This document shows positions 15,910 through 16,435 of a DNA stretch of 64,000 bases, piece after piece (the stretch's first letter is position 1; every line of letters begins with the position of its first letter). The DNA is taken from contig NC_043010.1 of NCBI RefSeq assembly GCF_006345805.1, positions 23,932,001 to 23,996,000 on the forward strand, in the 5' to 3' direction. This stretch comes from Octopus sinensis (taxonomy: Eukaryota). The notes under the pieces were generated by a model. It was not told where the DNA came from and did no database searches. It saw nothing but the letters and a program-made list of their open reading frames with translations. The position numbers were made by a program, and so were the translations under genes.

Positions 15910-16435
15910 AGCTATATATATGTACATGTAAAAAAACACAAATTGGGACAGGAACACAAAACATTTAGAAGGTACGGGCGACACATTTTTTTCTCTCTCT
16001 AGCCCTAAGGCTTTTTTCTAAAACCAGCTCAAAAATTTACTCGTCCTGTCGAAAAGACGCTTGTCTGTGACGTCCTGTTTTTGTTGTTATTATTGTTATA
16101 ATTATTGTTTTTACGTATTTTTGTGTTCTTGTTTGTGTTGTCATTGTTGTTTTTACGTATTTTCGTATTTTTATTCGTGTAGCATCGTCCGGTTTTCCGT
16201 CCTTGTTTTGTATACATTCGAGGCTTTCTTCCAAGGAATCTAATGCGCTTGGCTTAGATTTTCCCTTGGGGCTGGCCAGATCGGAGCGATCTCAAGATTA
16301 ATCAGCCGAAATTGCGAAGATGATCCGGTTCTTGACTGAAGATTGAAGGCTTCGAATGTCCCGTCCGTATTTTTTGTATCGTCTTCCAATGTTTTGCGTT
16401 CCTGTCCCAGTTTGTGTTTTTTTACATCTACACAT
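15910..16435. mobile_element. Fold-back element with ~45-bp terminal inverted arms carrying a structured-RNA-like motif
   Basis: 15926-15971 (atgtaaaaaaacacaaattgggacaggaacacaaaacat) is inverted at 16383-16428. Internal 16270-16362 is similar to 27485-27568. Confidence 0.65.

Follow-up and report, generated by a model that had tools for sequence, protein, structure and literature searches.

The question raised by this locus is what kind of RNA is encoded by a repeated motif that holds the words of a hammerhead ribozyme in permuted order, and on what kind of element that motif travels. It lies in a 64,000-nt stretch of the Octopus sinensis genome (contig NC_043010.1, positions 23,932,001 to 23,996,000), hereafter the window, whose own numbering is used throughout. 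A first-pass annotation had placed it at 16270-16362 and proposed an undescribed structured RNA, either a knotted or intermolecular hammerhead variant or a different fold, carried by fold-back elements. Sequence comparison makes it quite likely that the motif belongs to the 3' end of a short Penelope-like repeat, which is non-coding and likely derives from Naiads as a non-autonomous form. In this reading the RNA is predicted to fold as a hammerhead with a non-circularly permuted strand order, the chain entering and leaving between A9 and G10.1, and it probably cuts itself after 16291.

Strand order and helices of the motif

A hammerhead can be divided into block S with the cleavage site, block G with GAAA and block C with CUGAnGA, and the non-circular order S-G-C is reported as validated in metatranscriptome RNAs in the available text of Eckert et al. 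2023 (PMC10085705). Every word listed in the first-pass annotation was found where it had been placed on the plus strand: GGCTG (16270-16274), CCAGATC (16276-16282), GCGAT (16286-16290), the AUC triplet (16289-16291), TCAAGA (16292-16297), CAGCC (16303-16307), GAAA (16308-16311), ATTGC (16311-16315), GATCCGG (16322-16328), TCTTGA (16330-16335) and CTGAAGA (16336-16342). All core words are thus present, with CUGAnGA at 16336-16342, GAAA at 16308-16311 and NUH at 16289-16291. The motif at 16270-16362 is real but its extent differs, since the full fold occupies 16215-16358 and consists of the following parts.

16215-16230, plus strand: stem V 5' strand, where the chain enters the ribozyme; 14 consecutive pairs and two U-U with 16343-16358; present in the MFE fold; cluster-specific
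16231-16269, plus strand: hairpin IV, its 3' end directly before G10.1; present in the MFE fold
16270-16274, plus strand: stem II 5' strand, displaced upstream; G10.1 is 16270
16276-16285, plus strand: interaction helix 5' strand, corresponding to the SGC 'I' helix, with GA from a predicted kink-turn
16286-16297, plus strand: block S, with the stem III 5' strand, the AUC triplet (predicted cut after 16291) and the stem I 5' strand
16303-16315, plus strand: block G, with the stem II 3' strand, GAAA and the stem III 3' strand
16316-16328, plus strand: 3-nt bulge and GA (predicted kink-turn), then the interaction helix 3' strand
16330-16342, plus strand: block C, with the stem I 3' strand and CUGAAGA; A9 is 16342
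16343-16358, plus strand: stem V 3' strand, beginning directly after A9 and holding the GGCT once offered for stem II

The strand order is therefore V5'-IV-II5'-interaction-S-G-interaction-C-V3' with complete core nucleotides. The order other than that of types I, II or III noted earlier is S-G-C, where those types run C-G-S, G-S-C or S-C-G in a circle, and the motif has no match in Rfam: the whole window gave 0 matches at gathering scores, and the Rfam hammerhead families gave none over 15900-16450 at E<=10. G16288 forms a G-U wobble in the window copy and is A in most copies of the family. An HDV-like interpretation of the CGAAT-GNCCC words on the 3' side was dropped by eye, as was stem II formed as a short hairpin behind CUGAnGA, because the bases concerned are part of stem V.

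Loci of many families were scanned with a descriptor that ignores stem II and the interaction helix, which returned 166 hits (117 unique, forming 42 clusters at 80% identity) and 1 hit in reversed sequence. The pairing of each cluster's own strands was compared with that of strands from other clusters in 5000 shuffles; because the clusters share kinship, the shuffle counts are not probabilities. Stem III formed 112 of 140 pairs compared with 49 after shuffling in a set chosen on stem I only, and stem I formed 161 of 180 compared with 84 in a set chosen on stem III only. Across the 42 clusters the corresponding figures were 174 of 210 against 136 for stem II made with the upstream strand, and 184 of 210 against 165 for the interaction helix, with 0/5000 shuffles for each of these four helices. 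Nine different perfect 5-bp versions of the upstream stem II occur among the clusters. In alignment A1 (32 copies from three related families) it is 87.5% paired, with two-sided changes in three of its five pairs. A MAFFT alignment of divergent families put the helices out of register and was excluded from the counts. Covariation across copies, which had been set beforehand as a test, is present for each core helix in the shuffle comparison and in A1. It extends to the four pairings proposed at the outset (GGCTG/CAGCC as stem II, CCAGATC/GATCCGG, stem III and stem I) and backs the idea of a knotted hammerhead variant; the option of a different fold found no support. Stems I, II and III adjoin the core, as in the hammerhead class. 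The cleavage triplets among the clusters are GUC (26), AUC (9), GUA (5) and AUA (2), U and H being required by the descriptor.

Hairpin IV reaches up to G10.1. Stem V joins the sequence immediately 5' of this hairpin to the strand that follows A9, so that two helices lie between A9 and G10.1. The MFE fold of 16210-16365 includes both (z -2.66). Helices IV and V are each cluster-specific in 33 genome clusters plus 16 metagenome loci (0/5000 shuffles each); nine of the 42 clusters were left out of this test with the upstream stem II unclear, many of them single decayed or truncated copies. When V was forced to adjoin IV and to begin at A9+1, it formed 129 of 198 pairs against 114 in the genome set and 70 of 96 against 53 in the metagenome set. 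At least four of six stem V pairs are present in 21 of 34 genome representatives and 13 of 16 metagenome representatives, and the window family has U-U at the two V positions closest to the core. A helix between the 12-30 nt 5' of stem II and the strand after CUGAnGA was not seen; that upstream interval was too short, and a longer one revealed V. A separate 3' hairpin after CUGAnGA was unsupported (739 and 3,705 of 5000 shuffles). With IV and V so placed, the predicted RNA amounts to a type SGC hammerhead that has been circularly permuted, its chain opened at the A9-G10.1 step and helices V and IV inserted at that point; six helices co-vary across families.

In 11 of 33 clusters, the window family included, the loop that separates the interaction helix from stem III carries a kink-turn signature; in five of 33 its signature is loop-E-like. 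Loci L092, L099, L110, L155 and L159, which have AGGG after CUGAnGA, show an AGUA/GAA loop-E-like internal loop at the kink-turn position of the window family, which suggests that the two bends are interchangeable between families.

The carrier element and its copies

The motif sits close to the 3' end of a non-coding ~760-nt unit, in which the longest stop-free frame has 111 codons; this speaks against the coding remnant that had been named in advance as a refutation. Tandem units are common, with a period near 775 nt. Four stretches of the window belong to this unit or to its sister family.

15874-15971, minus strand: inverted element 3' end with 30-40 nt tail, the left 'fold-back' arm; 82.5% to the 3' end and tail of locus L014
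15980-16430, plus strand: 5'-truncated copy of the ~760-nt non-coding Penelope-like repeat with a (TA)n end; 94% to unit positions 296-770 of L014
27235-27458, minus strand: inverted partner copy, sister family; block S internally deleted; V, IV, II-5' and CTGACGA kept
27484-27731, plus strand: sister-family copy, older, degenerate and 5'-truncated; motif at 27485-27568; stem III and C3 damaged; V, IV and II-5' strands absent

Among 29 copies of the family, 25 are 5'-truncated, eight have an extra same-strand piece, four have an inverted piece and 27 have a microsatellite end. Truncation at the 5' end, partial tandems, an inverted copy of the 5' part, a tail of 30-40 nt and a microsatellite target, the features of Penelope-like insertion, are found. 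The carriers are thus Penelope-like insertions with an inverted 5' piece and not the fold-back DNA transposons that had been suggested. The anatomy matches that of Naiads as given in the available text of PMC8557442 (5' truncation, partial tandems, inverted 5' piece, tail and (TA)n targets). An autonomous Naiad ORF, with N-terminal GIY-YIG and C-terminal RT, is absent from the unit. The repeat is likely a non-autonomous Naiad derivative, and we infer its link to a Naiad protein.

The second copy (27485-27568) has 75% identity to the window motif. Its compensatory stem I change, TCAAGT/ACTTGA, is borne out as a change at the level of the family, and the loss of its stem III pairing is explained by a 2-nt deletion; C3 is also lost. 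The third copy, on the minus strand, does retain CTGACGA, but it runs from about 27458 to 27235 rather than over 27341-27380, and its cleavage-site block has gone by internal deletion. Together, 27235-27731 form a head-to-head pair of the older family.

In a DNA search with the window motif, 40 of 2,438 candidates were scored and gave at least 41 matches of 94-100% identity; with the second copy, 40 of 1,074 candidates were scored and identities were 83-89%, itself excepted. Two sister families (10 and 6 copies; L061-L090) are about 98% identical between copies. A strict pattern that fixes only the core and two stem I pairs, TCTCN{12,16}CGAAAN{14,24}GACTGANGA, had 8,447 matches in the genome compared with 6 for the reversed pattern in this 2.7-Gb animal genome, so the motif is not a product of chance. 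Other patterns gave 2,511 against 4, 1,519 against 16, 4,946 against 108 and 13,670 against 645 reversed matches, in sets that overlap and are not additive.

The window holds several other elements. Two inverted copies of one transposase remnant, which we presume to be mariner-like, lie at 12397-13507 and 20484-21609. The minus strand holds broken LINE-type elements, one with endonuclease and RT frames at 28841-33203 and a different RT element, in two to three tandem copies, at 53774-62453. A remnant of a C-terminal GIY-YIG Penelope-like element, of the younger family of L315-L330, occupies about 45600-47420. Ordinary short type I-like cores of other Penelope-like repeats, with CUGAnGA and then a close GAAAC, occur at 2197, 4223 and 20246 (plus strand) and at 9601 and 37010 (minus strand).

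The same layout behind Naiad-type RT genes

An RT motif search of the genome gave five loci, of which L181 has the full motif behind the RT, L180 has one core change and L179 is partial. Of 50 loci around RT hits, many with less than 1.5 kb of downstream sequence, 17 were flagged; 14 rows (13 places) represent the motif and three represent chance. The RT-linked copies in this genome belong to a sequence group other than the window family and all appear broken. An RT gene beside the window family's own ribozyme type was not found in this genome, nor was an intact Naiad ORF or mobilising element among the genome loci inspected. The non-coding families are about 98% identical between copies, while every Naiad-type RT copy seen is broken.

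Two candidate mobilising partners were set aside. A GIY-YIG fragment beside L057 is a separate insertion, and an abundant younger Penelope-like family with C-terminal GIY-YIG (16 loci) carries its own 3' end. The contact of this younger family with the window family at L315 looks like a chance neighbour because other sequence is present at that place in L319 and L321.

A metagenome scan with a single RT query found nothing, and one with an RT alignment found 52 loci. CUGAnGA lies behind the RT in 23 of these 52 contigs, and the core-opened layout is present in 16 (15 by scanner and L257 by eye), always on the sense strand and always 3' of the RT. The remaining loci with CUGAnGA comprise three of type CSG, one S-G-C without a clear stem II and three unparsed, and reversed controls gave 1 hit. 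The upstream strand pairs in 75 of 75 positions of stem II in the metagenome loci, a score that is partly circular because the scanner rewards stem II.

The 3' ends of the Naiad_Obim and Naiad_Ovul consensuses, read by eye, have the same layout, and their family is present in this genome. According to the available text of Craig et al. 2021, canonical hammerheads are lacking in Naiads, with some 'half cores' reported and Naiad_Ovul labelled 'HHR_half_core' (PMC8557442). Six nematode Naiad consensuses (Nbra 1-3, Hcon, Hpol and Asuum) carry well-paired type-CSG hammerheads by eye in the part of the PMC8557442 supplement available to us, as do the three CSG metagenome loci (L262:2900-3010, L263:3460-3580 and L265:1680-1790). 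The CSG permutation has so far been published from only two similar sequences. The bivalve consensuses among those seen have a different motif by eye; bivalve, hemichordate and related Naiad 3' ends share a conserved structured motif without CUGAnGA in the same supplement. The nematode CSG and bivalve motifs mean that the core-opened layout is not universal among Naiads. The 3' end of Naiad_Ptep, from a spider, has by eye an apparent other wiring in its available sequence, with block S, a local-hairpin stem II, block G and block C within a bracketing helix.

On balance we favour, with somewhat less assurance than the reading of the window locus itself, the view that a large Naiad branch across animals typically uses an active core-opened hammerhead, with a junction of two helices in place of the A9-G10.1 link, and that other Naiads use type CSG. 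On this view search descriptors account for the reported lack of hammerheads, which would be an artefact.

Relation to known hammerheads and alternative readings

The closest known relatives are the type SGC hammerheads (HRIMA-1 and SGC variants; PMC10085705, available text). The window motif shares with them the S-G-C order with complete core nucleotides, the short link from stem I 5' to stem II 3', and an interaction helix between the stem II 5' extension and the stem I 3' extension. In type SGC, however, CUGAnGA stands directly before stem II 5' with at most 1-2 inserted nucleotides known, whereas in the window motif the stem II 5' strand has an upstream position and A9 is followed by a strand of stem V. 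Interruption of block C is assumed impossible in that scheme, and here V and IV lie between A9 and G10.1. The interaction helix of the window motif, unlike that of type SGC, continues into stem III, and the published SGC examples in that text are metatranscriptome contigs rather than animal retroelements. As a predicted ribozyme, the motif would act as a type-SGC hammerhead does and falls outside that type at block C.

The S-G-C order was already published, so the motif is not wholly undescribed as first proposed; the new part, as far as the literature searched extends, is the A9/G10.1 opening with two inserted helices. No description of this layout was found in that literature, which covered few subscription papers, and none appears in the available text of PMC3088659, PMC13725137, PMC10162972, PMC6155905, 10.64898/2026.07.22.740005 or 10.64898/2026.09.16.752053. 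PMC13725137, as available, refers to Weinberg et al. 2015 on hammerhead variants that carry further helices. No tested precedent for helices inserted at A9/G10.1 was found in the literature searched. The available text on Naiads gives no structure, and the window element differs from them in having no ORF (PMC8557442). Non-LTR retrozymes, and the elements behind the minimal type I hammerheads known from Penelope-like elements, are likewise short non-coding tandem units with one hammerhead each, derived from Penelope-like ends (10.64898/2026.07.22.740005, available text); their hammerheads are circularly permuted type I, whereas the window unit is longer (~760 nt), non-circularly permuted and core-opened.

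In the favoured reading, coaxial stacking of V and IV would keep A9 next to G10.1, so that an ordinary hammerhead active site could form with a helical junction in place of the backbone link. Such tolerance may have a small parallel in a viroid hammerhead that de la Pena and Flores reportedly described in 2001, with one extra core nucleotide said to lie between A9 and G10.1. If so placed, it would show that this step tolerates insertion, of one nucleotide there compared with two helices here. The interaction helix, with the kink-turn in some families, would tie stems I and II together, and the RNA would be cut after 16291. Tandem or read-through transcripts would then be cut to unit-length RNAs about 150 nt before the element 3' end. 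These RNAs may then be closed into circles, by analogy with what has been proposed for retrozymes and for other hammerheads of Penelope-like elements. Both of those groups were reportedly described by Cervera and de la Pena in 2014 and 2020.

Of the alternatives, the one that survives best is a hammerhead-derived fold without cleavage of its own, which would bind protein or act as a signal for reverse transcription, or would need the element protein in order to cleave; we consider this unlikely. The motif is complete in genomic copies, whose ends lie about 150 nt beyond the predicted cut, so the copied template was uncut or rejoined, as such a fold would allow. The hammerhead of one Poseidon element also did not cleave without protein and was dispensable for insertion in vitro (PMC11167929, available text). 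Against this, RT-anchored loci from unrelated hosts keep CUGAnGA, GAAA and the RUH triplet while every helix sequence changes, and position 7 varies freely among the 42 clusters (T 20, A 12, C 6 and G 4), as in active hammerheads.

Quite improbable is a reading as plain type SGC, with stem II made by the downstream GGCU beyond an insertion of 5 nt and the upstream strand as an alternative or inhibitory partner. The downstream strand can pair at four of five positions in the two window families, and in A1 it is paired in 71.9% of cells with a two-sided change in one of five pairs, which makes it weaker than the upstream strand yet still there within these families. Across the 42 clusters, however, the strand after CUGAnGA shows no cluster-specific pairing (125 of 210 against 126 shuffled; 88 of 210 against 99 when only 0-2 inserted nucleotides are allowed), and neither do 15 metagenome loci (41 against 43). 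A young family with GGGTT at that site and an intact upstream strand has spread. The earlier suggestion that the downstream GGCT is a stem II partner also conflicts with the place of these bases within the 14-bp stem V.

A ribozyme formed between two molecules or tandem units, as in minimal Penelope-like hammerheads, is less probable again, and the intermolecular option of the first-pass annotation found no support. Units of ~775 nt are commonly arrayed in tandem, and folding in cis is topologically demanding because the core helices cross. Yet all partner strands, none of them palindromic, lie within one 145-nt stretch and adjoin with 0-1 nt gaps, as expected of a single junction, and most of the copies examined stand alone. 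Chance words or a coding remnant, for which nothing speaks except that the core words are short, can be given almost no credence, as the pattern counts, the covariation tests, which already refute it, the RT-linked metagenome copies and the 111-codon limit on stop-free frames all stand against it.

If the core-opened hammerhead is real, it would break the stated rule that block C is uninterrupted and that only six permutations are therefore available. A tolerated helical entry point beside the active site would be a new place of attachment for control modules in engineered ribozymes. Non-circular permutations would move from environmental RNA into animal genomes, in thousands of copies, and the layout would give a direct answer to why Naiads seemed to be without hammerheads.
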